Source: Bacteroidota bacterium
GTDB taxonomy: Bacteria > Bacteroidota > Bacteroidia > JABEUT01
Assembly: GCA_013289475.1 (NCBI GenBank)
Contig: JABCZW010000004.1
Location: forward strand, 3,596 to 67,595
Direction: 5' to 3'
DNA: 64,000 nt
The translations under genes and the position numbers were made by a program. Under the pieces are notes generated by a model. It was not told the origin of the DNA. It worked only from the letters and a program-made list of their open reading frames with translations, and made no database searches. Position 1 is the stretch's first letter. Every line of letters starts with the position of its first letter. Of this stretch, positions 2,934-25,356 are shown in pieces.

Positions 2934-4049
2934 TTATTGAATGTATTTGCTCAATGCCTTTTTAAGGTATGAGCTAATTGGTTTTTCATAAAACCGGAAA
3001 CATAGTTCTGCGAACAGAAATACCAGGAGTATTACAAGAATAGGTATGTATGGTAATAGATAGCTTGAAGTAATTACCTGTGCGAGCTTATTAATTAATA
3101 ATACGCCCACAAATTGATGAATTAGGTAAATGGTATAAGAAATAACTCCTATACGTTGTATTGCTTTTATTTTAAGGAACCCAAGGTACCGGGGCTTGAA
3201 TGTAAATAAGGCAAATAAGATGCCATATACTAATAGTATTATAATAATTGACCAGTTAAAGGTTACGGGATGCTGGGTTTTATTAAGGGTGAAATGGTGG
3301 TATTCAAAGAGAATTAATATGGCAAAAACGGGTATGTTCCATTTTGCCAGTGGTTTCTTGAAAAATAACGCGTAAGACAACATACCCATCGTGAAGAACA
3401 AAATATAATCGGAAAGTAAAAAGTGAGTCAGGAATAGGGTGAGGAAGTTATTATCAGGGAAGAAATTATCGTGCAATGCCAAAATAATTGTAATAACGCT
3501 GGAGAATAATATCCAGTTTGAGATGAATTTGGTTTTGTTTATAAAGTAAATAAGTCCCGATAAAATGTAAAATGTTACTTCAATAGGTAATGACCAGTAA
3601 GAGCCATCTATATAGGCAATATTTCTATTGGGCATAATATCGTTCCATATTTTAGCATTTGTAAAGGTTAAGCTGGGCAGGAAGCCAAGGGAAGAAGGGT
3701 GAAAAATGGGGTAATTATGATCCTTATCCATAAGCATAACGCAGACATAGGTTATAACTGAACATAGCAGAATAGACGGAAAGAGCCGTATCAATCTTTT
3801 TAAGAGAAACCCGGAATAGGAGACACTTTTTTCGAGTGTATAAAGTATTACAAAGCCTGAGATTATAAAAAAGAAGTTTACACCCAGCAACCCATACTGG
3901 AAATAAGCTGCGCCTGCATTAGTATATGGATAAAAGTTTTGCGTGTAACCGGGAGGGGTCCATCTTGAGTAATAATGAAAAAGAATAACCGACAGAATAG
4001 CAATGAACCTGAAGCTATCCAATATGTCAATGCGGTGTTCCTTATTCAT
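2934..4049 (-). CDS. acyltransferase family 3 (AT3) membrane O-acyltransferase, copy 1
   Basis: 371 aa and hydrophobic throughout. The N-terminal RIDILDSFRFIAILSVILFHY matches the AT3 R...H motif region. Paralogue of 5604-6692. Confidence 0.8.
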   Translation of the reverse strand: MNKEHRIDILDSFRFIAILSVILFHYYSRWTPPGYTQNFYPYTNAGAAYFQYGLLGVNFFFIISGFVILYTLEKSVSYSGFLLKRLIRLFPSILLCSVITYVCVMLMDKDHNYPIFHPSSLGFLPSLTFTNAKIWNDIMPNRNIAYIDGSYWSLPIEVTFYILSGLIYFINKTKFISNWILFSSVITIILALHDNFFPDNNFLTLFLTHFLLSDYILFFTMGMLSYALFFKKPLAKWNIPVFAILILFEYHHFTLNKTQHPVTFNWSIIIILLVYGILFALFTFKPRYLGFLKIKAIQRIGVISYTIYLIHQFVGVLLINKLAQVITSSYLLPYIPILVILLVFLFAELCFRFYEKPISSYLKKALSKYIQ

Positions 4050-4061
4050 AGATCAGTATTG

Positions 4062-5549
4062 CTATATTTTGTTTGAGCGGTTTCTTAAAAGTCCCTTCCC
4101 TAAAATGGTAATAGTATATGCCGCAAATATCAACATAAATGGATATGCAGGCACAAAATATCTTTTTTCGCATACTCCAAGAACTACAGGATGTATAACT
4201 ATAGTGTAAACAACAATAGCGGTAATCATTATAACGGGAGTAACTAAAATACTTTGCCTGAAGAGAATTAGTATGCCTATTGCTCCAAAGCCTATTATAA
4301 ATAGGTAGAATAATGAATAAAGTATTTTAACACAATATTGTACTGTATTTAATTGACTGGTGAGTGTTACAAATAAATTATAAGTTCCGGAATGAACTAA
4401 GAAATGCTTAGTCCGCATAATGGGCGCTTTAATGTAATATAGAAATGGCTTTTCTGTCTTTATTGAGTTAGCATAAAAGAAGCACTTTGTCCTGATTGTC
4501 GCGAGCAGTGATTTCATTTTAACAGAATCCGCATTGGGGTTAGATTCGTTGGATATATAAATGGAGAGTTGTTTCTTTAAAGCCAATAAAGAATCATAAT
4601 TAAATTTAGATGTGTATATATAATCTGGCAGTGATACGCTCCGGTTATGCAATTCGGGCGGTAAGCCGTCTTCTACACCAAACCACCGTATTTCAGCATC
4701 CGGTTCCCAATATTGATTGGCACCACCCCAGCTGCTTACCAGAGTATAAAGTGGAAGATCGTAAGAGTTTGCAATCCTCGGATAATAAAAGGATGTTGCG
4801 GGAATGAATTTGTCATGTTTTAAATAATTTCGGGTTGTCCAGGCTCCATCAATCAAAATCAATGGGAGCAAAAAAGCTAAGAGTTTTGGCATTAATTTCC
4901 CGGATTTGTTTCTGTAAAAGAAAACTAAAATCAGAACGCAGAAAATTAGAAATAAAGGAGCAAATATGGGACGTAGAAAAAATACTTCAGTCAAGAATAC
5001 GCCTGAAAATACAAGGTTGATGTATGTCTTGGATCTATTATGGAGTGCTTTTAGCAGAAAGAATACAGAAAAAATCAAGAAAGAGCATGTGAAACTCTCC
5101 GTAAGCAATGTTGTGTCGAATAAGCTGGTATAGGTACTTATGGCAAATAAGTAGAAGGTTAAATAAAACATGGCTTTCGACTTGAAGATATTGTAGGCAA
5201 TAATAGCGAGGCAATAAACTGATAATGATGCTGCAATAAACTGTAGTACAATAATGATAGTATATGCTATTGTTTTACTGAATAAAAACGCGAAAGGAAA
5301 ATATAGAAGCCCATAACCGGGCATGCGAAAATCAGGACTGTAAGCACCGTGTGTAATAAGGTTATCTATCGGGCTAAAGTATGTGTAAGTATCACCGGCT
5401 ATAACTCCCCTAAAACCAGGTAAGGGGCTAAGGTCTTGCCTGTAAATGAGGAAAATGAAGATAATACTCTTAAAGAAGAACGCTAAGAATATCCAGAACT
5501 GCCACTTGTAAGGGTCTCTAAGGAAAAACATACTTAGCCGGGGTTTCAT
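4062..5549 (-). CDS. polytopic membrane protein, putative GT-C-fold glycosyltransferase (uncharacterised family), paralogue 1
   Basis: 495 aa. After TM1 there is a loop reading GDTYTY..IDNLITHGAYSPDFRMPGYG, then about 8 TM helices, a hydrophilic segment of about 160 aa (WGG, IYTSKFNYDSL) and 3 C-terminal TM helices (RYFVPAYPF). The function is an inference. Confidence 0.55.
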   Translation of the reverse strand: MKPRLSMFFLRDPYKWQFWIFLAFFFKSIIFIFLIYRQDLSPLPGFRGVIAGDTYTYFSPIDNLITHGAYSPDFRMPGYGLLYFPFAFLFSKTIAYTIIIVLQFIAASLSVYCLAIIAYNIFKSKAMFYLTFYLFAISTYTSLFDTTLLTESFTCSFLIFSVFFLLKALHNRSKTYINLVFSGVFLTEVFFLRPIFAPLFLIFCVLILVFFYRNKSGKLMPKLLAFLLPLILIDGAWTTRNYLKHDKFIPATSFYYPRIANSYDLPLYTLVSSWGGANQYWEPDAEIRWFGVEDGLPPELHNRSVSLPDYIYTSKFNYDSLLALKKQLSIYISNESNPNADSVKMKSLLATIRTKCFFYANSIKTEKPFLYYIKAPIMRTKHFLVHSGTYNLFVTLTSQLNTVQYCVKILYSLFYLFIIGFGAIGILILFRQSILVTPVIMITAIVVYTIVIHPVVLGVCEKRYFVPAYPFMLIFAAYTITILGKGLLRNRSNKI

Positions 5550-5603
5550 GGATGTAGCACCGAATGGGGTTTAAATACTCATATATTTTTTTCTGTATGT
5601 TCT

Positions 5604-6692
5604 TTACTGAATGTATTTATGACATATTTTTTTAAGATAGGCGCTTACTGGTTTTTCGTAAAATCTGTAACTAAATTCTGCAAAAAGTAATACCAGTAAA
5701 ATTACTAATAAGGGTATAAAAGGTGTAAGAAATTCCAGTTTGATTATTGCTGAAATTTTGTTGATCAGTATAACACCTGCAAATTGATGAAAAAGATAGA
5801 CAGTATATGAAATTATACCTATCCGTTGGAATATCTTCATTTTAAGAAAACCTAAATAGGAAGGTTTAAAAGCGAATATTGCAAATAATAGAGTTGACAA
5901 AGAGATAATAAGAAGAATGGACCAGTTGTAAGTATAATGATGATACTCATAAAGAATTAAAAAGATAGAAAGTATTACGTTCCACTTTGTTAAAGTCTTT
6001 TTGAAGAAGTAAGCGTAAGAAAGTATGCCCACCGTGAAGAAAATAATATAATCCGCCAGCATAAAATGGTTAAAGAAATCAGTTAAAATGACGTTGTTGG
6101 GGAATACATGAATATGTAATGCATTAGCAGCTATTATTATAGTTGAAAAAACTAACCAGTTTGAAATGAAGTTCTTTCTGTTTGAAAAGTAAATCAACCC
6201 CGATATAAGGTAAAATGTCACTTCAGTGTGCAGAGACCAGTAAGCTCCATCAATATATGCCCAATTTTTATCCGGAAATATGTCGCTCCATATTTTTGTG
6301 TTTGAAAAAGTCAAACCCGGAAGAAAGCCATGCGGTGAAGAGTGAAAGACCGGAAATAGATTGTCTTTATCCAAAAGAATGACCAAAAGGTAGGTTACTA
6401 TGGAACAGAGTAACATGGGTGGAAATAACCGGATGAATCGCTTTATTAGAAAACCTCCATATGTTCCACTTTTTTCAAGTGTATATAGTATTACAAAGCC
6501 TGATATCATGAAAAAAAACTCAACACCAAGGTAGCCGTACTGAAAATAACCGGCATAACTATTACCGTATGGGTATAAGTTTTGAGTGTGAGCCGGAATG
6601 GTCCACCTGGAATAGTAATGGTATAAAATAACAGATATAATGGCCAGAAACCTGAAACTGTCAAGTATGTCAATCCGGGTTTCTTTACTCAT
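5604..6692 (-). CDS. acyltransferase family 3 (AT3) membrane O-acyltransferase, copy 2
   Basis: 362 aa. Collinear with copy 1 from MSKETRIDILDSFRF to FYEKPVSAYLKK..KYIQ. Confidence 0.8.
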   Translation of the reverse strand: MSKETRIDILDSFRFLAIISVILYHYYSRWTIPAHTQNLYPYGNSYAGYFQYGYLGVEFFFMISGFVILYTLEKSGTYGGFLIKRFIRLFPPMLLCSIVTYLLVILLDKDNLFPVFHSSPHGFLPGLTFSNTKIWSDIFPDKNWAYIDGAYWSLHTEVTFYLISGLIYFSNRKNFISNWLVFSTIIIAANALHIHVFPNNVILTDFFNHFMLADYIIFFTVGILSYAYFFKKTLTKWNVILSIFLILYEYHHYTYNWSILLIISLSTLLFAIFAFKPSYLGFLKMKIFQRIGIISYTVYLFHQFAGVILINKISAIIKLEFLTPFIPLLVILLVLLFAEFSYRFYEKPVSAYLKKICHKYIQ

Positions 6693-6695
6693 GTT

Positions 6696-8177
6696 TTAAT
6701 TTGATGAGTGTCTTTTTATATTGCTAATGGCATACGTGGCAAATATTACCATAAAAGGATATGCCGGGATAAGATATCTGAATTCGGGCTGGCGGAATAT
6801 CATTGGGTATGCTATAACAGTATATAATATAATAACTAATAATGTTGCAATAGATAAGTTTTGGAAACTTGTTTTAGCAAGAATAATTATTCCTGCTGTA
6901 CCGAATAACAAAATCATCCAGTAGAATAATGAATATATGATTTTAACAAATATTTGAAAATAATTTAAGGAATGCAAAGGCACATTATTGAATAGATTAT
7001 ATGTTCCTGAATTTGCAATAAATCTTCTTAAGTATGTTAAGGGTGCTTTTACATAATATAGAAATGGGTTCTCTGCTTTTACAGAATTTGAGTATCGTGA
7101 ACTTGCTTCTCTTATTCTGTTAAGTACAACTTCTTTTTTTAGTTGACTTAACTTTGAATCGTCGGAAAGGGTAATGTATTGTTGTACATTGTTACGCAAA
7201 ACCAACAGGCTATCGTAGTTGAATTTTGAAGTGTAGATTTGATCTGGGAAAATATTGTTTTTTGAAGCTGAGGCTTGTTTACCGGCTATGCTATCTTCCT
7301 TCATCACAAACCAATTGTATTGAGAATCCGAAGCGCCCATTGTCCAGTCTCCTCCCCAGGCTTGTATTAATGTAATTAAAGATAGTATATGACTGTTTTC
7401 AAATGAAGGTAGCCAGTGAACAGTTAAGGGATTTATTTCATGGTGTTTTTCATACCGGGATAATGTCCATGTTCCATCAGCAATAATAAATGAAACAATA
7501 AATACCAACGGTTTTATTATAGTAATCTTCTTTTGCGTGGTGTACATATATATCATAATAATTGCCGGGACTATAATTATTAGTGGCGCAAAAGCAGGCC
7601 GTAAGAAGATGGTTTCTGTAAAAAACAGGCCTGAAAGAAAAAGTTTTCGGTTGGATGCAGAGGCTCCTGTTAGAAATTGAGCGAGATAATACATTGAGAA
7701 TATAAGAAAGGCAGTGGCGAAGCTTTCGGTCAATAAAGCATCATCATACATATTTGTATAAGTACTTATGCAGTATATATATAAAACCAGGTAAAAAATA
7801 TTTGTCGATTTAAAAATCATTTTAGCAATTAATGCTAAAGGGTAAACCGAAACAGCTGATAGAATAAGTTGTAGAATAATAACTATATTGCAGGCTACAG
7901 GCTGACTAAAAAAGAAAGCAAATGGCATATATAAGATGCCATACCCTGGCATACGAATATCAGGAGAATAATTACCTTGCTTTATAAAATTATCTATAGG
8001 TTCAAGGTATGTTGGTGTATCTCCACTGGTTAACCCCCAAAAACCTGGTATTGAACTATACTCATGCCTGCATAAAAGAAGAATAAATATGGATGCTTTG
8101 CAAAAGAAAGCAAAAAGTAGCCAAAATTGCCACTGGGATGGCTCTCTAAATAAAAATTTACTGACCTGCCCCTTCAT
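6696..8177 (-). CDS. polytopic membrane protein, putative GT-C-fold glycosyltransferase, paralogue 2
   Basis: 493 aa. Same architecture and motifs as paralogue 1 (GDTPTY..NFIKQGNYSPDIRMPGYG, WGG, IYTSKFNYDSL, RYLIPAYPF). Its 5' end overlaps the epimerase 3' end by 20 nt. Confidence 0.55.
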   Translation of the reverse strand: MKGQVSKFLFREPSQWQFWLLFAFFCKASIFILLLCRHEYSSIPGFWGLTSGDTPTYLEPIDNFIKQGNYSPDIRMPGYGILYMPFAFFFSQPVACNIVIILQLILSAVSVYPLALIAKMIFKSTNIFYLVLYIYCISTYTNMYDDALLTESFATAFLIFSMYYLAQFLTGASASNRKLFLSGLFFTETIFLRPAFAPLIIIVPAIIMIYMYTTQKKITIIKPLVFIVSFIIADGTWTLSRYEKHHEINPLTVHWLPSFENSHILSLITLIQAWGGDWTMGASDSQYNWFVMKEDSIAGKQASASKNNIFPDQIYTSKFNYDSLLVLRNNVQQYITLSDDSKLSQLKKEVVLNRIREASSRYSNSVKAENPFLYYVKAPLTYLRRFIANSGTYNLFNNVPLHSLNYFQIFVKIIYSLFYWMILLFGTAGIIILAKTSFQNLSIATLLVIILYTVIAYPMIFRQPEFRYLIPAYPFMVIFATYAISNIKRHSSN

Positions 8178-9120
8178 TATTAAGCCAATTTATGAATTTT
8201 ACAATGCCTTCCTGTAGTGAGGTGGCAGGAGAGTAATTCAATATTTTTTCTGCTTTCTTAATATTGGCAAAAGTAATGTCAACATCACCAGGCTGCATAG
8301 GCTCATACTTAATAACCGGCTTTTTATTCAAGGCTTCAGAAATGCAATTTATAAGTTCATTGAGTTTTACAGGTGAGCTATTTCCTAAATTAATTATTTC
8401 AAAAACATTTTTGCGTGATGAAACATAATTAAATGAACTATATATTCCGTTTCTTATATCATCTATAAAAGTATAATCTCTTGCAGTAGTGCCATCTCCG
8501 AATAAGCGAACAGGCTTGTCTGTTGAAATAAGTTCAACGAATTTCCTTATAGCTAAATCAGGGCGTTGGCGAGGGCCATAAACGGTAAAGAAACGGAGAT
8601 TTATAATATCAAACCCGTACAAATGATGATAAGTGTGATTGAGTAATTCACAGGCCTTTTTGGTAAAAGCATAAGGTGAAATTGGAAAATCAACTATGTC
8701 ATCTTCCGCAAAAGGGACCTTTTTATTGTTACCATATACGCTGCTCGATGAACCAAAAACCATTTTACTGATTTTATTTTGTTTCATCCATTCTAAAATA
8801 TTTAAGGTGCCTTTTATATTGGTGTCGGTATATGCTTGTGGGTCCATTATTGACGGGCGTACTCCTGCTTTAGCTGCCAGGTGTATAACTACATCTATGC
8901 AAGAAGGAAGTTCCGCAAAAGCTTCCGTATTGACAATATCAAGTTCAATGAAGGTGAATTTTTTGCTGGAAAGGGCAATGGCAAGATTCTGTTTTTTCTT
9001 ATCCTTACTGTAAAAAGGGTCGAAATTATCTATGCCTACAACTTCATGTCCCTGGCTGAGGAAATACTCAGAAACGTGGCTGCCAATAAAACCTGCGCAT
9101 CCTGTAATTAATACTTTCAT
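8158..9120 (-). CDS. NAD-dependent epimerase/dehydratase (extended SDR, nucleotide-sugar epimerase type)
   Basis: 320 aa. Rossmann motif GCAGFIGSH at the N-terminus and the catalytic YxxxK (YAFTKK). Confidence 0.85.
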   Translation of the reverse strand: MKVLITGCAGFIGSHVSEYFLSQGHEVVGIDNFDPFYSKDKKKQNLAIALSSKKFTFIELDIVNTEAFAELPSCIDVVIHLAAKAGVRPSIMDPQAYTDTNIKGTLNILEWMKQNKISKMVFGSSSSVYGNNKKVPFAEDDIVDFPISPYAFTKKACELLNHTYHHLYGFDIINLRFFTVYGPRQRPDLAIRKFVELISTDKPVRLFGDGTTARDYTFIDDIRNGIYSSFNYVSSRKNVFEIINLGNSSPVKLNELINCISEALNKKPVIKYEPMQPGDVDITFANIKKAEKILNYSPATSLQEGIVKFINWLNNEGAGQ

Positions 9121-9151
9121 AATAAACTATAAGGCTTAAAGGTATTGAATT

Positions 9152-11023
9152 TTACATAAAGTTATCCCACCACATTTCAAATACCAGCAAATTCCATAAT
9201 AATTTCCGATGGTTTTGTTTTAAAGCCAGGTGTTCCTGCTTTAATTTATATATGTATGAATAGTTGAAAATGCCATGCTTATTTATCCTTTCCTCTGAAA
9301 GGTAATGCTCCATAGTTTCTTTTAATTCATTCCTGAGCCACAAGGAAACGGGTATGCCAAAACCTTTTTTAGGGCGGTCAATTATTTCATTGGGGAGTTT
9401 ATTGCGCATCAACTCTTTTAATAAACGCTTGCCTGTAAACCCTTTTATTTTGTAGCTTTTGGGTAGATTATTTAAAAACTCTACTACGTTTACATCTAGG
9501 AATGGAGCGCGGACTTCCAATGAAGTATACATGCTTGCCCTGTCTACCTTCACTAATATATCTTCCAATAAATAAGTGCGGTAGTAAGAGTAAAGCAGGC
9601 GGTTAAACTCACTTGCATGGGGCACATCGGTTAAATACCTGTCAATACTGGTTAAGCCATTACCATTGGTTAGGCTATGTAGTGCCGCAGAAGTAAATAA
9701 TTTACTTTTTAAAGACGGAGTAAAACTGCCCAGCCAAAGCGTATGTATATATTGTTTACTTTCTTCAAAGCCTTTGAAAAATTGGGTAAGTTTAAAGTCG
9801 AGGCTAATGTTTTTATCACTGGGGGGTAATAAATTTGTCAGTGAAGAAAAGGACTTAATAAGTGGCTTGGGCAGGGCATTAAAGAAGTTCAGGAACTTAT
9901 TTGAAATGAAGGTAGGATATCCAGCCAATAATTCATCGCTGCCATCGCCACCCAATGCCACTGTAACATGTTTGCGGGTGAATTTTGAAAGAAAATATGT
10001 AGGTATAATTGATGGATCTGCAAAGGGTTCGTCAAGTTTGCTTGTTATTTCAGGTATAAGGCTTAATGAAGTATTGGCAGATAAAATATCTTCATGATGA
10101 TTTGTCCCTAATTGTTTTGCAACCAGTTTTGCATAACTGCTTTCATCGTAACTCTTTTCAGAAAAACCAATGGAATAAGTATTGATTTTTGATGAGGCAT
10201 TTTTTTGAGCATAATATGCAACGGTACTGCTATCAAGCCCGCCACTTAAAAACACCCCTAATGGCACATCAGACATTAGCCTATCTGCAACAGCATTGTT
10301 TAATAGCTTATCTAATGTTATTGTAGCATCGGTGAATGATATGTTTTGTTCTGAAAAATTTACATGCCAATATGCTTGTTTGGTTGTAATCTCACCATCT
10401 TCAAAAATCATATACTGCGATGCTTCCAGCTTGTGTATGTTTTTGAAAATAGTATTGGGCGTTGGTATATAATCAAATGTCAGGTATTCGTTAACAGCAT
10501 CAAGGTTCAGTTCTTTGGTAACCAATGGGTGTTGTAAAATAGCTTTCAGTTCGGATGCAAATACAATGGTGCCATTTATTATTGAATAGTGCAGCGGCTT
10601 TTTCCCCATTCTGTCGCGAGCCAACAACAACTTCTTCTTGTTGAAATCATAAATGGCAAGGGCAAACATTCCATTCATTTTTTCAAGAAACTTCTCACCA
10701 TACTCCATGTACAGGTATACTATTACTTCAGTATCTGATGTTGTCCGGAATGTGTATTTATTCAGGCGCATTAATTCTTCCTTCAGTGCAAGGTAATTAT
10801 ATATTTCACCGTTAAATGTCAGCATAACCGATCTATCGGCCGAAAAGAATGGCTGTTGTGCCTCAGGGCTTAAATCAATTATACTTAGGCGTGCATGGGC
10901 AAAACCCGCATTTTCAATCAGCGATGTACCCTGGTAATCAGGCCCGCGATAACTGATCGCCTTGATCATCCGCCTTAAATCGTCTTCGCTGCCCTTACCT
11001 ACAAAACCTGCTATTCCGCACAT
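9152..11023 (-). CDS. asparagine synthase (glutamine-hydrolysing) family amidotransferase, paralogue 1
   Basis: 623 aa. MCGIAG provides the N-terminal Cys2 nucleophile, and the PP-loop SGGLDSS is present. It sits inside a glycan operon. Confidence 0.85.
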   Translation of the reverse strand: MCGIAGFVGKGSEDDLRRMIKAISYRGPDYQGTSLIENAGFAHARLSIIDLSPEAQQPFFSADRSVMLTFNGEIYNYLALKEELMRLNKYTFRTTSDTEVIVYLYMEYGEKFLEKMNGMFALAIYDFNKKKLLLARDRMGKKPLHYSIINGTIVFASELKAILQHPLVTKELNLDAVNEYLTFDYIPTPNTIFKNIHKLEASQYMIFEDGEITTKQAYWHVNFSEQNISFTDATITLDKLLNNAVADRLMSDVPLGVFLSGGLDSSTVAYYAQKNASSKINTYSIGFSEKSYDESSYAKLVAKQLGTNHHEDILSANTSLSLIPEITSKLDEPFADPSIIPTYFLSKFTRKHVTVALGGDGSDELLAGYPTFISNKFLNFFNALPKPLIKSFSSLTNLLPPSDKNISLDFKLTQFFKGFEESKQYIHTLWLGSFTPSLKSKLFTSAALHSLTNGNGLTSIDRYLTDVPHASEFNRLLYSYYRTYLLEDILVKVDRASMYTSLEVRAPFLDVNVVEFLNNLPKSYKIKGFTGKRLLKELMRNKLPNEIIDRPKKGFGIPVSLWLRNELKETMEHYLSEERINKHGIFNYSYIYKLKQEHLALKQNHRKLLWNLLVFEMWWDNFM

Positions 11024-11030
11024 AATAATT

Positions 11031-12497
11031 CTATAAATCGGTGGCCTCTAATTTATTTACTAATGAAGGTGAGAATTTATTTAACAACCAATATAAGCAA
11101 TATCCGGCACAAATAACTATAAATGGATAAGCCGGTATAAGGTATCTGTTCTCATTCTCTCTTATTACAACTGCATGAATAAGAATAGTAAAAACCGGTA
11201 TTGCCGGAATTATACAATTTAAATATAATTTGAAGATTAACGGTAGCATAAGTAATATGCCCAAAAAGCCAAAACTTAGTATTATATAATAATAAGCATT
11301 ATAGAATTTGCTGATGGTATTATTAATGTAAAGCTTAGTAACAGGGTGTATGCTAAACAGCAGTGCATTCAACCTTTTTTCATTACTTTTTATGTAAAAT
11401 ACATATGGGTTTTCTTTCTTTTCTGACAAAGTATATCGATTAAATTTCTCAATAACTGTTCTTTGATAGTCTGATTTCTGCAGCGTAGAAAGACATGAAT
11501 CAGTTGTCATCCGGGTTATAAGGTTCTTTAATGTTTTAAGGCTATCGGCATTAAATTGGGATGTATAAATATAACCCGGAAAGGGAACAGAATCATTTTT
11601 TGAGCCTGAACCAAACGTACAAGGCTTGCCATTGCCGAACCATGATATTTCAGCTTTAGGGTCTACAAACCAAATAGCTCCTCCCCACGATTGTGTAAAT
11701 TCTATCATCGATTTTAAATGGGTATTCTCAATCCATGGAAAATAAACTGTTTTGGTGAGAGGTGCAATTTTTTTGTAGTTTATATAATTACGTACTATCC
11801 ATGCTCCGTCTATTATTGCAATAGGGAGGAGCAACAAAAACGCAGGAAACATTTTTCTTTTGGAGCGCATTAATACTATTACCGCCAGTACAAACAGAAT
11901 CAAAAAAAGTGGCGAAAAAATTGGGCGTAAAAAGGTTGTCCAGGTTAAAAATGAGCCGGAGAAAATAAGTTCTTTTATTTCATATTTGTCAAAATAACGT
12001 GCAAAAAAATGAATGGATAAAATAAGGGTAGATGTAGTCAGACTTTCTGATATAAGCACGGGGTCCTGGATGCTTGAGAAGATGCTGGTGGTATAAATCA
12101 GGAAAGTGAGATAGAAAAGAGTATTGCTTTTGAATATTTTTTTTACGGTCAAAGCCAGCACATAAACAGAGAGTGATGAAAGCAGCAATTGAATTATAAT
12201 TAAAATATTACAGGCTGTGGCTTTTGAGAAAACAAGTAACAAAGGATAGTAAAGCACTCCGAACCCTGGCATACGGTAATCGGGGGTGTAAGAGCCTGTT
12301 TTTATTAGATTTTCAAATGGCAGCATGTATCCTTCGGAATCACCACGTAACCCGCCCCAAAAGCCCGGAAAATGATTGTATTGGCTAAAATGTATTACCA
12401 GCAAGAAAAAGATTAACCTGCTTATAAAGGCTAAACTAAGCCAGTATGGCCATTTTGATGTTGCAGGAAACAATAGTGTTATAAAGCCTTTACCCAT
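11031..12497 (-). CDS. polytopic membrane protein, putative GT-C-fold glycosyltransferase, paralogue 3
   Basis: 488 aa. Motifs GDSEGY..NLIKTGSYTPDYRMPGFG, WGG, IYTSQFNADSL and RYLIPAYPF, with the same TM layout as the other two paralogues. Confidence 0.55.
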   Translation of the reverse strand: MGKGFITLLFPATSKWPYWLSLAFISRLIFFLLVIHFSQYNHFPGFWGGLRGDSEGYMLPFENLIKTGSYTPDYRMPGFGVLYYPLLLVFSKATACNILIIIQLLLSSLSVYVLALTVKKIFKSNTLFYLTFLIYTTSIFSSIQDPVLISESLTTSTLILSIHFFARYFDKYEIKELIFSGSFLTWTTFLRPIFSPLFLILFVLAVIVLMRSKRKMFPAFLLLLPIAIIDGAWIVRNYINYKKIAPLTKTVYFPWIENTHLKSMIEFTQSWGGAIWFVDPKAEISWFGNGKPCTFGSGSKNDSVPFPGYIYTSQFNADSLKTLKNLITRMTTDSCLSTLQKSDYQRTVIEKFNRYTLSEKKENPYVFYIKSNEKRLNALLFSIHPVTKLYINNTISKFYNAYYYIILSFGFLGILLMLPLIFKLYLNCIIPAIPVFTILIHAVVIRENENRYLIPAYPFIVICAGYCLYWLLNKFSPSLVNKLEATDL

Positions 12498-12584: not shown

Positions 12585-13318
12585 CTATTCCTTTTTTCTG
12601 GCAACACAAAAAATTGATGAACCGTAAAGTTTTTTTTGCATCAACCAACACTCCGCTATAAAACATACCGCAATTATTCTATGCAATAGTTTTACCAAAC
12701 TATTGGGTGGGGCAGGGGTTTTAATTGGCCTGTCTTTACGGAATTTTTTAAGCAATAAAATTGAAAGATATATTGAGTTAAATACGTAGCGTATATCAAC
12801 AACTTCAAAGCCTGCTCTATTAATAAGTTTCTCGGTCATTTTTAAGTCATACCTTCTGAAATGACGGTAAAAGTCATCGAAATTGGTCCATATTTCCTTT
12901 CTTGCCGGAACCGTGAGTACCAGGTGGGTTACTCCTTCATACTTTGCTAAAACAGATTTCAGGAACCTTTCATCATCCTCAATGTGTTCAATAACATCAA
13001 GAAGCATTAGTGTTTTGAATTTTTTTCTGAAGTTTTCATCTAAATCAAGTGCATTGGTACCGGTTACTATCTTACCTTCAATTCCATCTAAGGGTAATAC
13101 ATTTGCGAGTTCAACGCCAAAGCAGTCAATATTTCTGCGGGTTAAATATTTTATAATTATCCCCTGGCACAACCAATTTCAATTATCGGGCCGTTGAATA
13201 GTTTTTTTTCTTTAATGGTCCGGTATAAAATATGGTTCCTTGCCAACGACCAATATGAAACCTCGGCACCGGCAGGGTATCCAATACTAAACTCGGCATC
13301 ATTATAGGCAGTACTCAT
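12585..13318 (-). pseudogene. class I SAM-dependent methyltransferase interrupted by a 1-nt frameshift
   Basis: The ATG at 13318 directly abuts the upstream gene's stop (13319-13321). That frame reads MSTAYNDAEF...NGPIIEIGCARG and then hits TAA at 13157-13159. The tracked ORF 12585-13172 continues in another frame as (L)CQGIIIKYL. One extra G in the G4 run (C4 on the + strand, 13161-13164) would give IIEIGCARGIIIKYL. The total length of 734 nt is not a multiple of 3. Confidence 0.7.
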
Positions 13319-14140
13319 CTATTTCTTCTTGCCTCCGAATTTCCATGAGTTGCCATTTCTGAAAATAATGTAAGCGGAGCTCTTATCTATTTCAGGATAC
13401 TTATCGAGCCATTCCTGTATGGTTTGTTTAGATATATAAACGGTTTGAGGGGTGACCAACTGATCAAACGCCACGTGCCTGAAAAAAAGAAAACCTCTTT
13501 TTGCTATCCAACAGGAATATTCATATAATGGAAACTTCTTGAACATTTTACTTGTAGAAATTATCTTTGCGTATATAAAGTAAGGTACAACAATTGGTGT
13601 AGCAATGAGGTATTTAGTAAACCACCAGGGCAGCTTTGAAGCTATTTTCCTGATTGGATCAACAATATAAATTACAACTGTGTTACCTTCTTTGGCGTAA
13701 ACCCAGCAGTGAAAACGCCCTCCGGGCTTTGTGTTCCTTAAAACAGATTCAAACCCGTCGATTGGCTTTTTTAAGTGATGTAATACACCAATGCAATAAA
13801 CAAGATCATAACCACTACCGGCAAACTTGGTAAGGTCAAATTGCGTGATTTTGAAGTTTTTAAACCCGGTTTGCGCCATGTTTTTTTCGCACGAAAGAAC
13901 AGAATCTCCCAAATCAACACCTTCAATATACGCAGGTTGCCAAGCAGGTATATGGCATAATAGGCTTCCGTTCCCGCAACCTAGTTCTAAAACTGTTTTA
14001 CCGGCCACATCCGCCTTAGTAATAGGGGCAAACCAATCCTCAAACTGGTCGACTGTATATACTGATCCTCCTGGTAAATTGTTCCACGAAGAAGCAAATG
14101 CCTCTGCTGTTTTCTTATCCTCAGATTCTAATGTATTCAC
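13319..14140 (-). CDS. class I SAM-dependent methyltransferase
   Basis: 273 aa with motif I VLELGCGNGS. Its start lies 1 nt from the upstream gene's stop. Confidence 0.8.
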   Translation of the reverse strand: MNTLESEDKKTAEAFASSWNNLPGGSVYTVDQFEDWFAPITKADVAGKTVLELGCGNGSLLCHIPAWQPAYIEGVDLGDSVLSCEKNMAQTGFKNFKITQFDLTKFAGSGYDLVYCIGVLHHLKKPIDGFESVLRNTKPGGRFHCWVYAKEGNTVVIYIVDPIRKIASKLPWWFTKYLIATPIVVPYFIYAKIISTSKMFKKFPLYEYSCWIAKRGFLFFRHVAFDQLVTPQTVYISKQTIQEWLDKYPEIDKSSAYIIFRNGNSWKFGGKKK

Positions 14141-14141
14141 A

Positions 14142-14705
14142 CTATTTCTTTATAAAAATATACTCAATTTCTTCAAATCCTCCTACCCAAAAACACCATA
14201 TACGTGAACAAAGTGATGGGCTAAGCTTTGCGAAAAAATTAATTATAACATTAATAACATGCATAACAGAAATAATAAACTTACTAATGCCCATATAAGG
14301 AAGCAGATGAAAGAATGCAAAATAATGAAGTTCAACTTTTTCTAATTCAAATGCTACACCGTAATAACCTGATTTGGTGAATGTGGGATTGAAATAGTAC
14401 GGAAATGTGAGATCGAAACCTGCCTTATGTTCAGAGTGTGTAAAGCCGCGACTAAAATGTGGTACCTTTAATTGCAATTTTCCTCCTTTTTTGAGTATTC
14501 TGTGGAGCTCTTTCATAATGACAAGTGGTTTATCCAGGTGTTCTATCACATGTGAAGCGAGAATAAAATCAAACTCCTCGTCTTTAAAAGGGTATGGGAT
14601 AACATTCAGGTCGTATTGTAAATCTACTTTTACATGAGAATGAAAATCAATATTTACAAAACCTTCCTTATAATCAATGCCGCAACCCAGGTTTAACTTA
14701 TTCAT
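14142..14705 (-). CDS. class I SAM-dependent methyltransferase (Methyltransf_11-like)
   Basis: 187 aa with N-terminal LNLGCG and FDFILASHVIEHL. Confidence 0.75.
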   Translation of the reverse strand: MNKLNLGCGIDYKEGFVNIDFHSHVKVDLQYDLNVIPYPFKDEEFDFILASHVIEHLDKPLVIMKELHRILKKGGKLQLKVPHFSRGFTHSEHKAGFDLTFPYYFNPTFTKSGYYGVAFELEKVELHYFAFFHLLPYMGISKFIISVMHVINVIINFFAKLSPSLCSRIWCFWVGGFEEIEYIFIKK

Positions 14706-14706
14706 A

Positions 14707-15648
14707 TTAAAAGTTAACTTTCTCTTTAATAGTGAAAGGGAACTTATTTTGACTTTCGTAATAGGTGCGCATCATCATTTCGGCAAGCACACCCATAAGA
14801 ACCATTACAATACCAACTATAAAAAACATGGCTGCAATAGTTGGCAGGGGAGTTTGAATAAAATCTTTTTGCCCGGTTAGTTTAAAATAAATAGCCAGGC
14901 CTGCAGATAGAAGCATAACAAGGAAAGACAAAATGCCGGCCCCGCCAAAAAAATGTATAGGGCGCTGCATAAATTTATCCAGAAATTTTATAAGAACAAG
15001 GTCAAGTATTACTTTATATATCCTGAATAAACCATAGTTACTCTTGCCATACATACGTGGCTGATAGTTCACCGGAATTTCAGTAACCTTGCCGCCCTGC
15101 CATTGGCAGAATACGGGTATAAAGCGATGCATTTGCCCATAGAGGCGTACATCCTTTATCACATCTCTTTTGTATGCTTTTAAGGTGCAGCCATAATCGT
15201 GCAACTTAACACCCGATATTTTGCTTATTAGGCCATTGGCTGCCAGCGACGGTATTTTTCGCGTAAGAAACTGCCCTTTCCACCTGGCTTGCCTCCATCC
15301 ACTCACTACATCATATCCTTCTTCCATTTTGGCCAATAGTTTGGGAATATCATTCGGATCGTTCTCCAGATCACTGTCAATAAGAATCAATATATCTCCC
15401 GTGGCGGACTGTATACCTGCATTAATAGCTGCTGTCTGGCCAAAGTTTCTTTTTAAGTTTATGAGTTTAATAGCGGAGTTTTTTGCAGCTGTTTTCAGCA
15501 TTTCATCCCACGATGAATCTTTTGAGCCGTCATTTACTGCAATAATCTCATATTCATAACCCGTCAAAGCCTTTTCAAGCGTACTGAAAAGTAATTCAAT
15601 GCCTTTGGCTTCGTTATAAACCGGAAGTATTATAGAAAGCCTAGACAT
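14707..15648 (-). CDS. GT2 polyprenyl-phosphate glycosyltransferase (GtrB/ArnC/DPM1-like)
   Basis: 313 aa. Motifs LSIILPVYNE, NDGSKDSS and DSDLEND (DxD), plus two C-terminal TM helices typical of this GT2 subgroup. Confidence 0.8.
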   Translation of the reverse strand: MSRLSIILPVYNEAKGIELLFSTLEKALTGYEYEIIAVNDGSKDSSWDEMLKTAAKNSAIKLINLKRNFGQTAAINAGIQSATGDILILIDSDLENDPNDIPKLLAKMEEGYDVVSGWRQARWKGQFLTRKIPSLAANGLISKISGVKLHDYGCTLKAYKRDVIKDVRLYGQMHRFIPVFCQWQGGKVTEIPVNYQPRMYGKSNYGLFRIYKVILDLVLIKFLDKFMQRPIHFFGGAGILSFLVMLLSAGLAIYFKLTGQKDFIQTPLPTIAAMFFIVGIVMVLMGVLAEMMMRTYYESQNKFPFTIKEKVNF

Positions 15649-16419: not shown

Positions 16420-19284
16420 TTATAGTTCTTTAGCCAAGTATACGGCAGTATGGCTCTTTTTGTTTTTTATTATTTCTTCGGGGGTGCCTTCAACTATTAT
16501 TTGGCCGCCTTTAGCGCCGCCTTCTGGGCCAAGGTCAATAATATGATCGGCTACTTTTATTACATCCATATTATGTTCTATAACAATAACAGTGTTGCCA
16601 TAGTCAACCAGCTTATTTAATACATCAAGCAGCAGGCGGATGTCTTCAAAATGCAGGCCTGTGGTTGGTTCATCGAGTATATAAAGAGTATTACCGGTTT
16701 GCCTTTTCGATAATTCTGTTGCTAATTTGGTACGTTGTGCCTCACCACCTGATAAGGTAGTGGAGGATTGACCTAATGTAATATAGCCTAAGCCTATCTG
16801 GCTAAGAGTAACTATTTTTTGATGTATAGAAGGAATCTCAGAGAAAAACTCGACTGCTTGTTCAACCGTTAAGTTAAGTACATCGTTAATTGATTTGCCT
16901 TTAAACCTTACCTCAAGGGTTTCCCTGTTATAACGTTTGCCATTGCATTCGTTGCAAACCACATATACATCGGGTAAAAAGTTCATTTCAATAGTGCGTA
17001 AACCTGCGCCCTGGCATGTTTCGCACCTGCCGCCCTTTACATTGAAAGAGAATCTTCCCGCCTGGTATCCGCGTATTTTAGCCTCAGGTAATGCTGCAAA
17101 CAGGTTACGTATGTCGGCAAAAACGTTTACATAGGTAGCAGGGTTTGAACGTGGAGTTCGCCCTATAGGTGCCTGGTCAATTTCAATTACCTTATCTATG
17201 TGTTGCAAGCCGGTAATGGAATCATATTCCAATGGTTTTTTCTCTGCCCGGTAAATATGATGGTTGAGAATAGGGTAGAGGGTTTCATTAATTAAAGATG
17301 ATTTCCCTCCGCCCGAAACACCGGTTACGCAAATAAGTTTGCCTAATGGAAAAGCTACTGTAACATTCTTCAGATTATGGCCTTTGGCTCCTTTCAATAC
17401 AATTTCTTTGCCACTGCCTTTCCTGCGTTTCGTGGGTATGGCAATTTCTTTTTTCCCTAAAAGGAATTCGGCAGTAAGGCCCGGCTGCTTAACAAATTTT
17501 TCAGGAGTTCCCTGGGCAACAATTTTACCACCATGCATACCTGTGCCGGGGCCAATGTCTATAATCCAGTCCGATGCAAGCATCATTTCTTTGTCATGCT
17601 CAACAACAATTACTGAATTACCAATATCACGCAATTGCTTAAGCGCTTCAATAAGTTTGGTATTATCACGCTGGTGCAGGCCAATGCTTGGCTCATCGAG
17701 TATATACAATACGCCAACCAGTTGCGAACCTATTTGTGTAGCAAGGCGTATACGTTGTGCCTCGCCGCCCGATAATGTACGGGAGCTGCGGTTAAGAGTG
17801 AGGTAATCGAGCCCTACGTTAAGCAAAAACTGTGCACGGCTGCGGAGCTCTTTTAAGACTTCTTTGGCAATAATTTTATTTTTAGCGCTTATTTTGCTTT
17901 CTATTGTAAGGAACCAATCATAGAGTGCGACAATATCTAAAGAGGCTAATTCAGCAATGTTCTTATCATCAATTTTAAAGTAAAGGGCTTCTTTCTTTAA
18001 TCGGGTTCCTTTGCAATCGGGGCATATTACTTTATTCATAAAGCCCGAAGCCCATTCTGCCAGCCCGGGTGTATCGCTCTCCTGCCTTTGGCGTTCAATA
18101 AAGTTAACGATACCTTCAAAATTCAGTGCATAGCTGTGTGCATTGCTGGTTAGGCTTTCACGCACTTTCAATATTTCATCAGAGCCATATAAAATAGTAT
18201 GTATAGCTTCTTCAGGTATTTTGTTTACAGGTGTATCGAGGGTAAAGCCATGCTTTTCGCCAATAGCGTCAAGCTGACGGAATATCCAGTTATCTTTTCT
18301 TTTACCCACAGGGGCAATAGCACCGTCGTTAATTGATTTGTGGGTATCGGGTATAATTTTTTTTGCATCAATTTGCGCCACTTCACCCAGACCATTACAA
18401 TTCGGGCATGCACCATAAGGAGAGTTGAATGAGAAAAGATTGGGTGCCGGCTCATCGTAAGATATGCCTGAAGTAGGGCACATTAAAAAACGGCTGTAAT
18501 GATGTACCTTGTTATCTTCGGTAATTACTGTAATAATTCCTTTGCCGTTTTTCATAGCAAGGGCAACCGATTCGGTAATTCGTTTTTGCGAATCAATATG
18601 TACTTCAACCCGGTCAATAAGCACTTCAATATCGTGTATGCTATACCTGTCAGTATGCATACCGGCCTTTATTTCTTTTATGTCGCCATCAATTCTAACG
18701 CGTGAGAAGCCGCTTTTTCGCAATTGCTCAAAAAGCTCTCGGTAATGGCCTTTTCTGCCTTTTACAACAGGTGCAAGTATTTGTATCTTCTGTTTGTCGA
18801 ATTTTTCAATTATCAGGTCCACTATTTGTTTCTCTGAGAACCGAACCATTTTTTCTCCTGTTACATACGAGAATGCTTCTCCTGTTCGGGCAAATAGTAG
18901 GCGAAGAAAGTCATATATTTCAGTAATGGTACCAACCGTTGAGCGCGGGTTTTTATTTACCGTTTTCTGCTCAATAGATATAACGGGGCTAAGGCCTTCA
19001 ATTTTATCTACATCAGGCCGTTCCATACTGCCTAAAAACTGGCGGGCGTATGCCGATAATGTTTCAATGTACCTGCGTTGCCCTTCCGCATAAATGGTAT
19101 CAAATGCCAATGATGATTTTCCGCTGCCGCTTAAACCTGTAATTACCACAAGCTTGTTACGCGGTATTGAAAGACTTATGTTCTTCAGGTTATGTTCGCG
19201 GGCGCCAATAACCTCAATGTATTCCTGTGCGGAAATAATATCATTGGGTTTTTCAAGTATCTCCGTCTTCACCTTATTTTTCAA
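16420..19284 (-). CDS. uvrA: excinuclease ABC subunit A
   Basis: 954 aa. Two ABC modules (GLSGSGKSS and GVSGGGKSS, with LSGGEAQR twice) and CxxC zinc-finger pairs. Confidence 0.97.
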   Translation of the reverse strand: MKNKVKTEILEKPNDIISAQEYIEVIGAREHNLKNISLSIPRNKLVVITGLSGSGKSSLAFDTIYAEGQRRYIETLSAYARQFLGSMERPDVDKIEGLSPVISIEQKTVNKNPRSTVGTITEIYDFLRLLFARTGEAFSYVTGEKMVRFSEKQIVDLIIEKFDKQKIQILAPVVKGRKGHYRELFEQLRKSGFSRVRIDGDIKEIKAGMHTDRYSIHDIEVLIDRVEVHIDSQKRITESVALAMKNGKGIITVITEDNKVHHYSRFLMCPTSGISYDEPAPNLFSFNSPYGACPNCNGLGEVAQIDAKKIIPDTHKSINDGAIAPVGKRKDNWIFRQLDAIGEKHGFTLDTPVNKIPEEAIHTILYGSDEILKVRESLTSNAHSYALNFEGIVNFIERQRQESDTPGLAEWASGFMNKVICPDCKGTRLKKEALYFKIDDKNIAELASLDIVALYDWFLTIESKISAKNKIIAKEVLKELRSRAQFLLNVGLDYLTLNRSSRTLSGGEAQRIRLATQIGSQLVGVLYILDEPSIGLHQRDNTKLIEALKQLRDIGNSVIVVEHDKEMMLASDWIIDIGPGTGMHGGKIVAQGTPEKFVKQPGLTAEFLLGKKEIAIPTKRRKGSGKEIVLKGAKGHNLKNVTVAFPLGKLICVTGVSGGGKSSLINETLYPILNHHIYRAEKKPLEYDSITGLQHIDKVIEIDQAPIGRTPRSNPATYVNVFADIRNLFAALPEAKIRGYQAGRFSFNVKGGRCETCQGAGLRTIEMNFLPDVYVVCNECNGKRYNRETLEVRFKGKSINDVLNLTVEQAVEFFSEIPSIHQKIVTLSQIGLGYITLGQSSTTLSGGEAQRTKLATELSKRQTGNTLYILDEPTTGLHFEDIRLLLDVLNKLVDYGNTVIVIEHNMDVIKVADHIIDLGPEGGAKGGQIIVEGTPEEIIKNKKSHTAVYLAKEL

Positions 19285-21536: not shown

Positions 21537-21546
21537 GGAATAGAGG

Positions 21547-22089
21547 TTAGAACTGGCTTTTAAAATCCTTAAATAGTTTACCGTTTTTATCTTTTTCAGA
21601 TAAAACAGGGTTTTCTATATTCCATTTAATATGCAGGTCCGGGTCATTCCAATAAATAGAATCTTCAGAGGCTTTATTATAAAGCCTTGAACATTTATAA
21701 AGGAATACTGTATCATTTTCGAGTGTTTTAAATCCATGGGCAAAACCTTCGGGTATGTACAACATGGTTTTGTTTTTTTCACTCAGTTCCAGGCCAAAGT
21801 GCTCGCCATAAGTTGGTGAATTTTTCCGTATGTCAACCGCTACGTCCCAAACAGAACCCTGTATTACCCTAACCAGTTTTGACTGAGCAAAAGGAGGGTT
21901 TTGAAAATGAAGCCCGCGCAAAACACCTGTTTGCGACATTGATTGGTTGTCTTGCTGAAAGTCATCAGTTATACCCAATCCGGCAAATACCTTTTTATTA
22001 TAAGGCTCATAAAAATATCCTCTCTCATCCTGAAATACCTTAGGCTGAATGACCAATAATCCCTTAAGCGGTGTTTGCGTTACTTCCAT
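21547..22089 (-). CDS. rmlC: dTDP-4-dehydrorhamnose 3,5-epimerase
   Basis: Cupin motifs QPKVFQDERGYFYE, RGLHFQ and GSVWDVAVDIR. The start is set at MEVTQTPLKG. The tracked upstream extension reads the Wzc YG repeat in another frame. Confidence 0.88.
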   Translation of the reverse strand: MEVTQTPLKGLLVIQPKVFQDERGYFYEPYNKKVFAGLGITDDFQQDNQSMSQTGVLRGLHFQNPPFAQSKLVRVIQGSVWDVAVDIRKNSPTYGEHFGLELSEKNKTMLYIPEGFAHGFKTLENDTVFLYKCSRLYNKASEDSIYWNDPDLHIKWNIENPVLSEKDKNGKLFKDFKSQF

Positions 22090-22096
22090 TTCTGTT

Positions 22097-25314: not shown

Positions 25315-25356
25315 AAAATCTATTAGGTTGATAAGAAGTACCAAAAGTACTAAAAA

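Follow-up and report, generated by a model that had tools for sequence, protein, structure and literature searches.

Three diverged paralogues of an unnamed GT-C-fold family, with a probable role in surface-glycan decoration, in one Bacteroidota gene run

Introduction

What do three similar polytopic membrane proteins do when one run of genes encodes all of them? This question is raised by a 64,000-nucleotide (nt) stretch of DNA from a Bacteroidota bacterium (contig JABCZW010000004.1; hereafter the window), in which three open reading frames (ORFs), here called GT-C paralogues A, B and C, lie among genes for sugar metabolism. An earlier note on this DNA had described them as diverged paralogues with GT-C-like features that could not be placed in a named family. 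GT-C enzymes build or decorate envelope glycans in lipid A modification, O-antigen seroconversion, protein glycosylation and mycobacterial arabinan synthesis. Here, we computed directly the paralogy of the three proteins, their GT-C fold and clan homology, their predicted periplasmic loops, the homology of a GT2-type glycosyltransferase encoded in the same run, and the conservation of the gene cassette. A, B and C are most likely old paralogues of an unnamed, large and almost Bacteroidota-confined GT-C-fold family. The three proteins are very probably GT-C-fold enzymes with a predicted periplasmic active site, and it is likely that they decorate a surface glycan from outside the cytoplasm with a lipid-linked, probably uronic-acid-derived sugar, with three acceptor specificities.

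Three paralogues with shared invariant residues

The ORFs of A (4062..5549, 495 aa), B (6696..8177, 493 aa) and C (11031..12497, 488 aa) were confirmed with the positions and lengths that the earlier note had given, all on the minus strand. Over the full length, identity is 45% between A and B, 38% between A and C, and 37% between B and C (BLASTP E 3e-91), and a search with B retrieves A at E 1.5e-123. By sequence comparison the similarity of the three proteins is thus far above chance, which bears out their description as diverged paralogues. Every motif that had been quoted for them was found in A, B and C as well as family-wide in an alignment of 68 relatives; these are G-D-[TS]-x-x-Y, N-[LF]-I-x-x-G-x-Y-[ST]-P-D-x-R-M-P-G-[YF]-G, WGG together with IYTS[KQ]FN[YA]DSL, and R-Y-[FL]-[IV]-P-A-Y-P-F. 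In that alignment (residue numbering throughout is that of paralogue B), D53, Y57, P77, G78, Q103, P194, W237, S365 and R467 are invariant in 68 of 68 sequences, and D73, R75, D145, E151 and the glycines of WGG are near-invariant. Paralogue A carries all the family-invariant residues, and C is the most diverged of the three.

Placement in the GT-C superfamily

Paralogue B scores 32.9 bits (cut-off 23.8) on the Pfam model PF03901 (Glyco_transf_22) over residues 90-231; C gives weak matches to PF03901 and PMT_2, and A is without any Pfam match. Among the 68 relatives, at E<0.01, PMT_2 is matched by 30 members, which makes it the most frequent Pfam match of the family, and PF03901 by 13. The register of these matches is constant, residues ~98-228 lying on PMT_2 positions 22-153. 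Both models belong to the GT-C clan (PMC7801869), Pfam clan CL0111. A full-length GT22 match was not found, as the aligned positions of PF03901 are only 71-216 of 414. PF02366 (PMT/ArnT), on which Escherichia coli ArnT scores 2.4e-62, is matched by none of the three window proteins and by one of the 68 relatives (E 1.8e-3). The NCBIfam models gave only sub-threshold matches, to the Leptospira LA_3751/LA_3752 family. Profile searches of the PDB yielded spurious transmembrane (TM) matches only, such as ABCG25 and an opioid receptor, at E>0.05, and these were rejected. Overall, we assign the proteins to the GT-C superfamily without attaching them to GT83, GT39 or GT22, and no curated GT-C family covers them, in agreement with the earlier failure to name one.

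An AlphaFold2 model of B, built with the 68-sequence alignment, has a predicted local distance difference test score (pLDDT) of 92.3 and a predicted TM-score (pTM) of 0.93. It consists of TM1, a first periplasmic loop (EL1) of 44 residues, six TM helices, an insert of ~160 aa and three final TM helices, about ten TM helices in total, which is within the range of 7-13 for the core of GT-C proteins. The layout proposed before therefore holds for TM1, the loop, the insert and the three last helices, and fails for the roughly eight helices between loop and insert, where the model gives six. GT-C architecture has been described as a 7-TM module followed by a variable part (PMC11127046), which the model of B fits.

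When this model was compared with the PDB by Foldseek, every match with a probability of at least 0.6 was a GT-C-fold protein. The GT-C matches, the top ones at a probability of 0.9-1.0, comprise PglB, yeast and human STT3, DPY19, ALG3, ALG9, ArnT, AftB, Pmt1/2/4 and EmbC; a glycosylphosphatidylinositol (GPI)-transamidase subunit with a GT-C-like fold (9ub7_B, which we take to be PIG-U) is also among the matches. The lowest root-mean-square deviation (rmsd) over the TM core was obtained with Pmt1/2/4 (6-10 A over ~260-300 columns). The G-protein-coupled receptor decoys that are interleaved in the list have a probability of ~0.1 and a TM-score of ~0.1. A Foldseek search of viral structures returned uncharacterised proteins only.

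The membrane topology was predicted with the positive-inside rule, applied to 68 members with the TM boundaries of the B model. The density of lysine plus arginine is 0.243 in the predicted cytoplasmic segments versus 0.073 in the short periplasmic loops and all 68 members show the higher value inside; the net charge is +8.2 inside and -2.0 outside, and the N-terminus is predicted to be cytoplasmic. Predicted to be periplasmic are the loop with GDxxY and PDxRMPGYG, the D145/E151 loop, the RP194 loop, the insert and the ExRYxxPAYPF loop. D53, Y57 and R467, plus D73, R75, D145 and E151, lie in or border these predicted outside loops. Hence, the GD..Y loop is on the periplasmic side by this rule in all 68 members, as the earlier note had anticipated. 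The GT-C-like features that it had pointed out are now supported by three independent lines, namely the register of the Pfam clan matches, the PDB neighbours of the model and the predicted periplasmic EL1, with both Foldseek and Pfam returning GT-C proteins.

The first periplasmic loop and the helical insert

EL1 of B (7941..8072, minus strand; residues 36-79) contains D53, Y57 and PDxRMPGYG and is the putative catalytic loop. By eye, its sequence GDTPTYLEPIDNFIKQGNYSPDIRMPGYG resembles the EL1 loop of ArnT, the pattern GDTxxY...G[ND]Y.P...RMP facing PDETRYA...GDW..P...EKP, and the two loops are in compatible register on PMT_2 coordinates. In ArnT, the loop motifs RYA and YFEKP are essential (PMC5377068). 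Profile comparison with E. coli ArnT did not recover the EL1 motifs of ArnT and PMT (DExRYA ... YFEKP and the PMT DE motif). The acidic/aromatic motif that had been noticed in EL1 is accordingly present, invariant and periplasmic by prediction, and its likeness to ArnT and PMT is not borne out by profile scoring. Judged from the likeness by eye and the consistent PMT_2 register, D53 may be the counterpart of the catalytic Asp in ArnT, PglB or PMT, and a catalytic role of this EL1 residue is suggested.

The predicted periplasmic insert of B (6963..7442, minus strand; residues 246-405, between TM7 and TM8) carries WGG and IYTSKFNxDSL. Modelled alone, it is alpha-helical (pLDDT 83), and Foldseek found no match for this model in the PDB better than E 4.2; going by the model, it is neither an MIR domain nor a recognisable carbohydrate-binding module. 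Neither of the soluble domains expected for ArnT or PMT, that is, a C-terminal domain or an MIR domain, was found. Loop 5 of PMT lies after TM7, and the analogy drawn earlier between it and the insert is right as to position and wrong as to kind, the insert being alpha-helical and not MIR.

The donor-making glycosyltransferase and the other genes of the run

The run is headed by a GT2 polyprenyl-phosphate glycosyltransferase of ArnC/GtrB/PgfS-like type (14707..15648, minus strand), the presumed maker of a lipid-linked donor. It scores 181 bits on the NCBIfam model of ArnC and 154 bits on that of PgfS, both under the equivalog cut-offs, and matches ArnC (E 1e-47), GtrB (4.5e-37) and archaeal DPMS (1e-24) in the PDB over its full length, which confirms the GtrB/ArnC-like enzyme that had been recognised at the head of the operon. 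Its two hydrophobic C-terminal segments look like the two C-terminal TM helices of ArnC/GtrB-type enzymes. This GT2 is likely to make the lipid-linked donor for the paralogues.

In minus-strand order, the genes are GT2, three methyltransferases (MT1, MT2 and MT3), C, an AsnB-type amidotransferase, an epimerase, B, an acyltransferase-3 (AT3) gene, A and a second AT3 gene. From 15648 to 2934 they all point the same way, and the distances between them are -20 to 87 nt when MT3 is read through its frameshift. The first 20 nt of B are also the last 20 nt of the epimerase gene (8158-8177), and the gaps between MT1 and GT2 and between MT2 and MT1 are 1 nt each; the overlap and the 1-nt gaps suggest translational coupling within the run, and an operon is plausible from this arrangement. 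A promoter and terminator scan gave counts no higher than those of shuffled sequence, although it targeted sigma-70 sites and Bacteroidota-type promoters may escape it. The Rfam scan of the window gave no matches.

Two of these products bear on the nature of the sugar. The NAD-dependent sugar-nucleotide 4-epimerase (8158..9120, minus strand) has its best PDB matches in 5u4q (8e-78) and 6zl6 (7e-63), ahead of WbgU, WbpP and GalE. We take the 6zl6 series to be the UDP-glucuronate 4-epimerase of Bacillus cereus, with which the Y149/K153/R185 numbering fits. The alignment shows that the YxxxK motif and 'GPRQRPD' are kept. In the B. cereus enzyme, Arg185 holds the uronate carboxylate (PMC12338863). 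The epimerase of the window, in which 'GPRQRPD' contains this Arg, is UDP-glucuronate 4-epimerase-like. The AsnB-type glutamine amidotransferase (9152..11023, minus strand) is WbpS-like and has Asn_synthase and GATase domains, a Cys2 nucleophile and an SGGLDS motif; its best NCBIfam model is TIGR03108 (eps_aminotran_1; 551 bits, cut-off 817). WbpS, WbqG and PGN_1234, which are enzymes of the TIGR03108 family, convert uronic acids into uronamides (PMC7468200).

The three class I S-adenosylmethionine (SAM) methyltransferases are MT1 (14142..14705, minus strand; 187 aa; Methyltransf_11, E 2e-11), with a homologue in 9-14 related loci, MT2 (13319..14140, minus strand; 273 aa; Methyltransf_12, _31 and _23), with a homologue in 11-13, and MT3 (12585..13318, minus strand). 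In MT3, a 1-nt frameshift near 13157-13166, after a GGGG run, falls inside SAM-binding motif I and separates 53 N-terminal codons (ATG at 13318, stop codon at 13157-13159) from the remaining 195, which form the ORF listed for this gene. Intact homologues of 243-248 aa occur in other loci, and the MT3 sequence in a Logan assembly (L001) is identical to that of the window. Either MT3 is a pseudogene or a slippage variant, or the shift stems from an error in the reads or the assembly.

Both AT3 genes encode membrane O-acyltransferases of OafA/Oac type. Copy b (5604..6692, minus strand; PF01757, E 3e-24) lies between B and A, and copy a (2934..4049, minus strand; PF01757, E 6e-26) is the last gene of the run. 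The copies are 64% identical, versus 45% for the adjacent A and B, so that the two GT-C/AT3 pairs have diverged unevenly.

A conserved cassette around the GT-C gene

To what extent do these genes accompany the GT-C family elsewhere? A scan of GTDB species representatives gave 79 related loci (denoted by L numbers), all from metagenome-assembled genomes (MAGs) of Bacteroidota except one Omnitrophota bin. When the window proteins were searched against these loci by tblastn, homologues of GT2 were found in 37, of AsnB in 31, of the epimerase in 26 and of the methyltransferases in 13-17, whereas the unrelated flanking genes that served as controls were found in 1-3 of the 79. AT3 was found in one of the 79 and is thus not a conserved partner of the GT-C family. 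An unbiased all-against-all clustering of the genes within 6 kb at 75 loci gave GT2 in 38, AsnB in 28, the epimerase in 27 and the methyltransferases in 9-13, with all others at 6 or fewer; GT2 is the most frequent neighbour of the family. The gene orders Epim-GTC-GT2-MT-MT-AsnB and GT2-MT-MT-AsnB-GTC recur.

One subclade (L018, L021, L023, L027, L066 and L080) has WbpD-, WbpB- and WbpA-like genes just downstream of the GT-C gene, encoding a hexapeptide acetyltransferase, a GFO/IDH/MocA oxidoreductase and a UDP-sugar 6-dehydrogenase together with an epimerase, which links it to diacetamido-uronic-acid synthesis by a Wbp-like pathway. At L012 and L075, the cassette stands among Wzt, Wzi and GT4 genes. 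MAGs of Spirosoma and Aquirufa (L071, L075) have the cassette in the form Epim-GTC-GT2-AsnB. L075, from a Spirosoma MAG, also encodes a 655-aa fusion of an NAD-dependent epimerase/dehydratase and a GT2 domain (17725-19692, plus strand), ~6 kb from the cassette and adjoining split transketolase genes; it may be another enzyme for sugar activation and lipid loading.

In the window, the run ends convergently with an acyl-CoA synthetase gene, and upstream on the same strand there are a LOG-family gene, UvrA, an SLT/LysM protein and then a polysaccharide export and assembly cluster (20466-28464, minus strand). This cluster encodes a WecA/MraY-like GT4-family transferase, RmlC, a Wzc-like tyrosine kinase, a Wza-like exporter and a GT4-type glycosyltransferase, as well as another AsnB-like amidotransferase, which shares 38% identity with the AsnB of the run. 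Between UvrA-LOG and the acyl-CoA synthetase gene, the syntenic relatives L003 and L004 have one GT-C gene only and L008 has GT2-MT-AsnB-Epim-GTC, compared with 11 genes in the window; this differing content marks the site as a variable glycan island. The G+C content of the operon is 33-38%, versus 40-43% for the flanks. Farther away on the minus strand lie genes for two proteins with Por_Secre_tail, the C-terminal sorting domain of type IX secretion (31069-32439 and 37756-39693), which confirm the Bacteroidota origin of the DNA, and between them genes for a PAS histidine kinase and a response regulator.

Family size and the age of the paralogues

A homologue search returned 172 proteins; the 120 listed are all named 'hypothetical protein', and those among them with an organism name come from Bacteroidia or Flavobacteriales MAGs. 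When a family profile was run exhaustively against 1.84 billion representatives of 50%-identity clusters, the number of matches was 758 at E<=1e-30, rising to 1997 at 1e-10 and 7436 at 1e-3. Apart from a few fragments, the top 150 are mostly 450-525 aa long. What makes the family new is its size, its lack of annotation and its position outside all curated GT-C families. Multiple copies per MAG are common, often 3-5 (five in KR3_bin-0479, four each in MAG 11 and YF1.bin105).

Three copies in one run might come from a recent local triplication. In a neighbour-joining tree (without bootstrap), A groups with L005, L003, L004 and L002 from other MAGs, B stands at the base of the clade that contains A and L008, and C is placed beside L009 in a separate clade. 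Partners of A and C in other MAGs and the basal position of B indicate three old, maintained lineages and not a recent local triplication. By region, the identity among the paralogues is highest in EL1 (43-59%) and lowest in the periplasmic insert (33-38%) and TM8-10 (32-40%). A conserved EL1 with a diverged insert and TM8-10 is the pattern expected for a shared donor and catalysis with differing acceptors, and the sequences thus suggest three distinct acceptor specificities.

Discussion

How might these proteins act together? In the pathway that we propose, the epimerase would convert UDP-glucuronate into UDP-galacturonate, and the ArnC/GtrB-like GT2, as its homology suggests, would load the sugar onto polyprenyl phosphate at the cytoplasmic face. 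The WbpS-like amidotransferase and the SAM methyltransferases might, more speculatively, amidate or methylate the sugar before or after its attachment to the lipid. The lipid-linked sugar would be flipped across the membrane by a flippase whose gene would have to lie outside the operon and the conserved neighbours. Each GT-C paralogue would then bind the lipid-phosphate-sugar at the membrane-periplasm interface, where Asp53 of EL1, aided by Y57, R75, D145, E151 and R467, would catalyse its transfer to a surface glycan, each paralogue serving a different position or linkage of O-antigen, capsule or lipopolysaccharide (LPS) core. The two AT3 proteins would add O-acyl groups.

The identities of the donor and the acceptor, and the three distinct specificities, are what we infer. 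The carboxylate-binding Arg of the epimerase, the WbpS-like AsnB and the subclade with Wbp neighbours together make up a uronic-acid theme, and a hexuronic acid, possibly amidated or methylated, can be put forward as a tentative assignment of the sugar. The acceptor is uncertain; we favour a surface polysaccharide over lipid A/core, and both over protein. The upstream Wza, Wzc, WecA, RmlC and GT4 genes, the Wzt, Wzi and GT4 genes at L012 and L075, and the interleaved AT3 genes provide the surface-glycan context.

Several observations weigh against this pathway. Roughly half the copies of the family lack a GT2 gene within 6 kb. No gene for a flippase (GtrA, ArnE/F, MATE or SMR) is present in the operon, all genes of which are accounted for, and the annotated conserved neighbour clusters contain no small membrane protein or transporter; the gene for one may lie elsewhere in the genome. 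MT3 is frameshifted, and the amidotransferase, epimerase and methyltransferases might belong to a cytoplasmic route to a nucleotide sugar that another glycosyltransferase uses. As for the proteins themselves, the Pfam matches cover TM2-TM7 only, profile searches of the PDB with the 3- and 68-sequence alignments found no solved GT-C protein, and the Foldseek E-values are weak at 0.02 or above (0.02-0.3), with TM-scores of 0.30-0.46. Comparison of the family alignment with the single E. coli ArnT sequence, a weak template, by hhalign gave no alignment, and hidden Markov models (HMMs) of residues 44-84, 44-110, 1-245 and the full length gave no positive-scoring alignment with E. coli ArnT even with filters off. 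Moreover, the family is uncharacterised, and its function is read from sequence, model and context.

A question raised by the Rhizobium and Arn precedents is whether the same chemistry could instead act on lipid A or the LPS inner core, with one position per paralogue, as in ArnT or Rhizobium RgtA-D/RgtF. In Rhizobium, a bactoprenyl-phosphate-GalA synthase (RgtE) feeds several GT-C paralogues, which differ in the acceptor position that they serve (PMC7663294). The resemblance of the epimerase to UDP-glucuronate 4-epimerase and the closeness of the GT2 to ArnC are in keeping with such a role. We nevertheless regard it as unlikely, given that PF02366, so strongly matched by ArnT, is unmatched here, that no lipid A genes are nearby, that the cassette occurs in O-antigen- or capsule-type loci, and that AT3 O-acyltransferases and 3-5 copies per genome fit variable polymers better.

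Transfer of a lipid-linked monosaccharide to Ser/Thr of exported proteins, as by PMT or PgfM1/PgfM2, is a decidedly improbable alternative. The PMT_2 matches of 30 of the 68 members, the soluble insert after TM7 at the site of the PMT loop-5 domain and the PgfS score of the GT2 agree with it; the insert, however, is helical, without MIR or any solved match, PF02366 is essentially unmatched, and the neighbourhood consists of polysaccharide genes with no candidate substrate protein nearby. Could the proteins have a GT-C-like fold and yet not be transferases, acting as a scaffold, lipid-binding subunit or transporter, as PIG-U does in GPI transamidase? The fold match to 9ub7_B and the comparisons with ArnT, in which no catalytic residues could be aligned, would allow this, but the invariant D53, Y57 and R467 and near-invariant R75, D145 and E151 in predicted periplasmic loops across 68 of 68 members indicate a conserved active site, and the genetic link is to a donor-making GT2, which leaves a non-transferase role highly improbable. 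Finally, the earlier suggestion of Wzy- or WaaL-like (or EpsG-like) polymerases or ligases acting on undecaprenyl-diphosphate-linked repeat units, which would suit the polytopic build of the proteins, their periplasmic loop, the polysaccharide locus, the one EpsG match among the 68 members (1e-4) and the missing Wzy or ligase gene in the Pfam-scanned parts of the window, is rejected as hardly credible for want of any profile or fold support. None of the three proteins matches a Wzy_C, EpsG or O-antigen ligase Pfam model at E<=1, the 50 best fold matches include no WaaL, Wzy or SEDS structure, and the close association with a GT2 of polyprenyl-monophosphate type agrees with a GT-C donor.

The decoration of a surface glycan by periplasmic GT-C enzymes thus remains the preferred reading. 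In its boldest form, which is rather unlikely to be right, the proteins would found a new CAZy GT-C family and be the terminal enzymes of a five-to-six-gene Bacteroidota pathway, in which a hexuronic acid is placed on polyprenyl phosphate, neutralised by the amidotransferase and/or the methyltransferases and transferred in the periplasm; the paralogues would write different glycan positions and be a main driver of surface-glycan diversity in environmental Bacteroidota. Characterisation of this family would annotate thousands of genes, probably reveal new lipid-linked donor chemistry and account for some of the variety of surface glycans in environmental Bacteroidota, which is relevant to recognition by phages and predators. 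No principle would be overturned.

Comparison with known systems

The ArnC/ArnT pathway for lipid A aminoarabinose resembles the system of the window in several ways: the GT2 is most similar to ArnC, including two C-terminal TM helices, its partner is a polytopic GT-C protein with a conserved Asp/Tyr first periplasmic loop, and the sugar is tailored around the lipid-linked stage. However, the window family shows neither a PF02366 match nor profile similarity to E. coli ArnT, its soluble domain follows TM7 whereas that of ArnT is at the C-terminus, and homologues of ArnA, ArnB, ArnD and ArnE/F are missing, with an AsnB amidotransferase and methyltransferases in their stead.

Compared by description, the Rhizobium RgtE and RgtA-D/RgtF system shares the gene logic of one polyprenyl-phosphate-GalA synthase that feeds several GT-C paralogues (PMC7663294). 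It differs in phylum and in context, which in the window is of capsule or O-antigen and not lipid A type, and the amidotransferase and methyltransferases are extra. In the Rgt system, a UDP-glucuronate 4-epimerase supplies the sugar, and the window epimerase likewise bears the UGAepi signature.

The GtrA/GtrB/Gtr* modules and GT136 are alike in that a GtrB-type GT2 and a GT-C protein modify a finished glycan outside the cytoplasm, and AT3 O-acetyltransferases often accompany Gtr modules. In contrast, the window locus and the conserved neighbours have no GtrA, MATE or SMR flippase, three GT-C genes stand in one operon, and the family is unrelated in sequence to the curated Gtr models. The GT-C partner varies among Gtr-type systems, and new GT-C families are still being founded, such as GT136 in 2024 (PMC11127046).

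With PMT (GT39), the family has in common PMT_2 as the most frequent Pfam match, the lowest TM-core rmsd (to Pmt1/2/4) and a soluble domain after TM7. Its insert, unlike that of PMT, is all-helical with no MIR beta-trefoil, three TM helices follow it whereas four follow loop 5 of PMT, and its context is one of bacterial polysaccharide genes. The Pgf system of Streptococcus mutans (PgfS, PgfE, PgfM1 and PgfM2) likewise combines a GT2, an epimerase and more than one GT-C protein per cluster (PMC11092751), and the window GT2 reaches 154 bits on the PgfS model; nevertheless, PgfM1 and PgfM2 are YfhO-type GT-C proteins, the window family has no YfhO match, and Pgf acts on Ser/Thr-rich proteins in a Gram-positive organism.

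The Leptospira LA_3751/LA_3752 family (NF047440) is the only NCBIfam model matched by A, B and C, at 19-35 bits over residues ~80-270; its model length of 460 is similar, and its name, LA3751_2_3_fam, suggests neighbouring paralogues. These scores are far under the 200-bit cut-off, so the window proteins do not belong to the same family, and NF047440 is itself uncharacterised.

Overall, the logic of a GtrB/ArnC-type GT2 with an extracytoplasmic GT-C enzyme, several paralogues and O-acyltransferases is already known from the Gtr, Arn, Rgt, Pgf and GT136 systems. What is new here is the GT-C family itself, its helical insert without a structural match, and its conserved epimerase, amidotransferase and methyltransferase partners.

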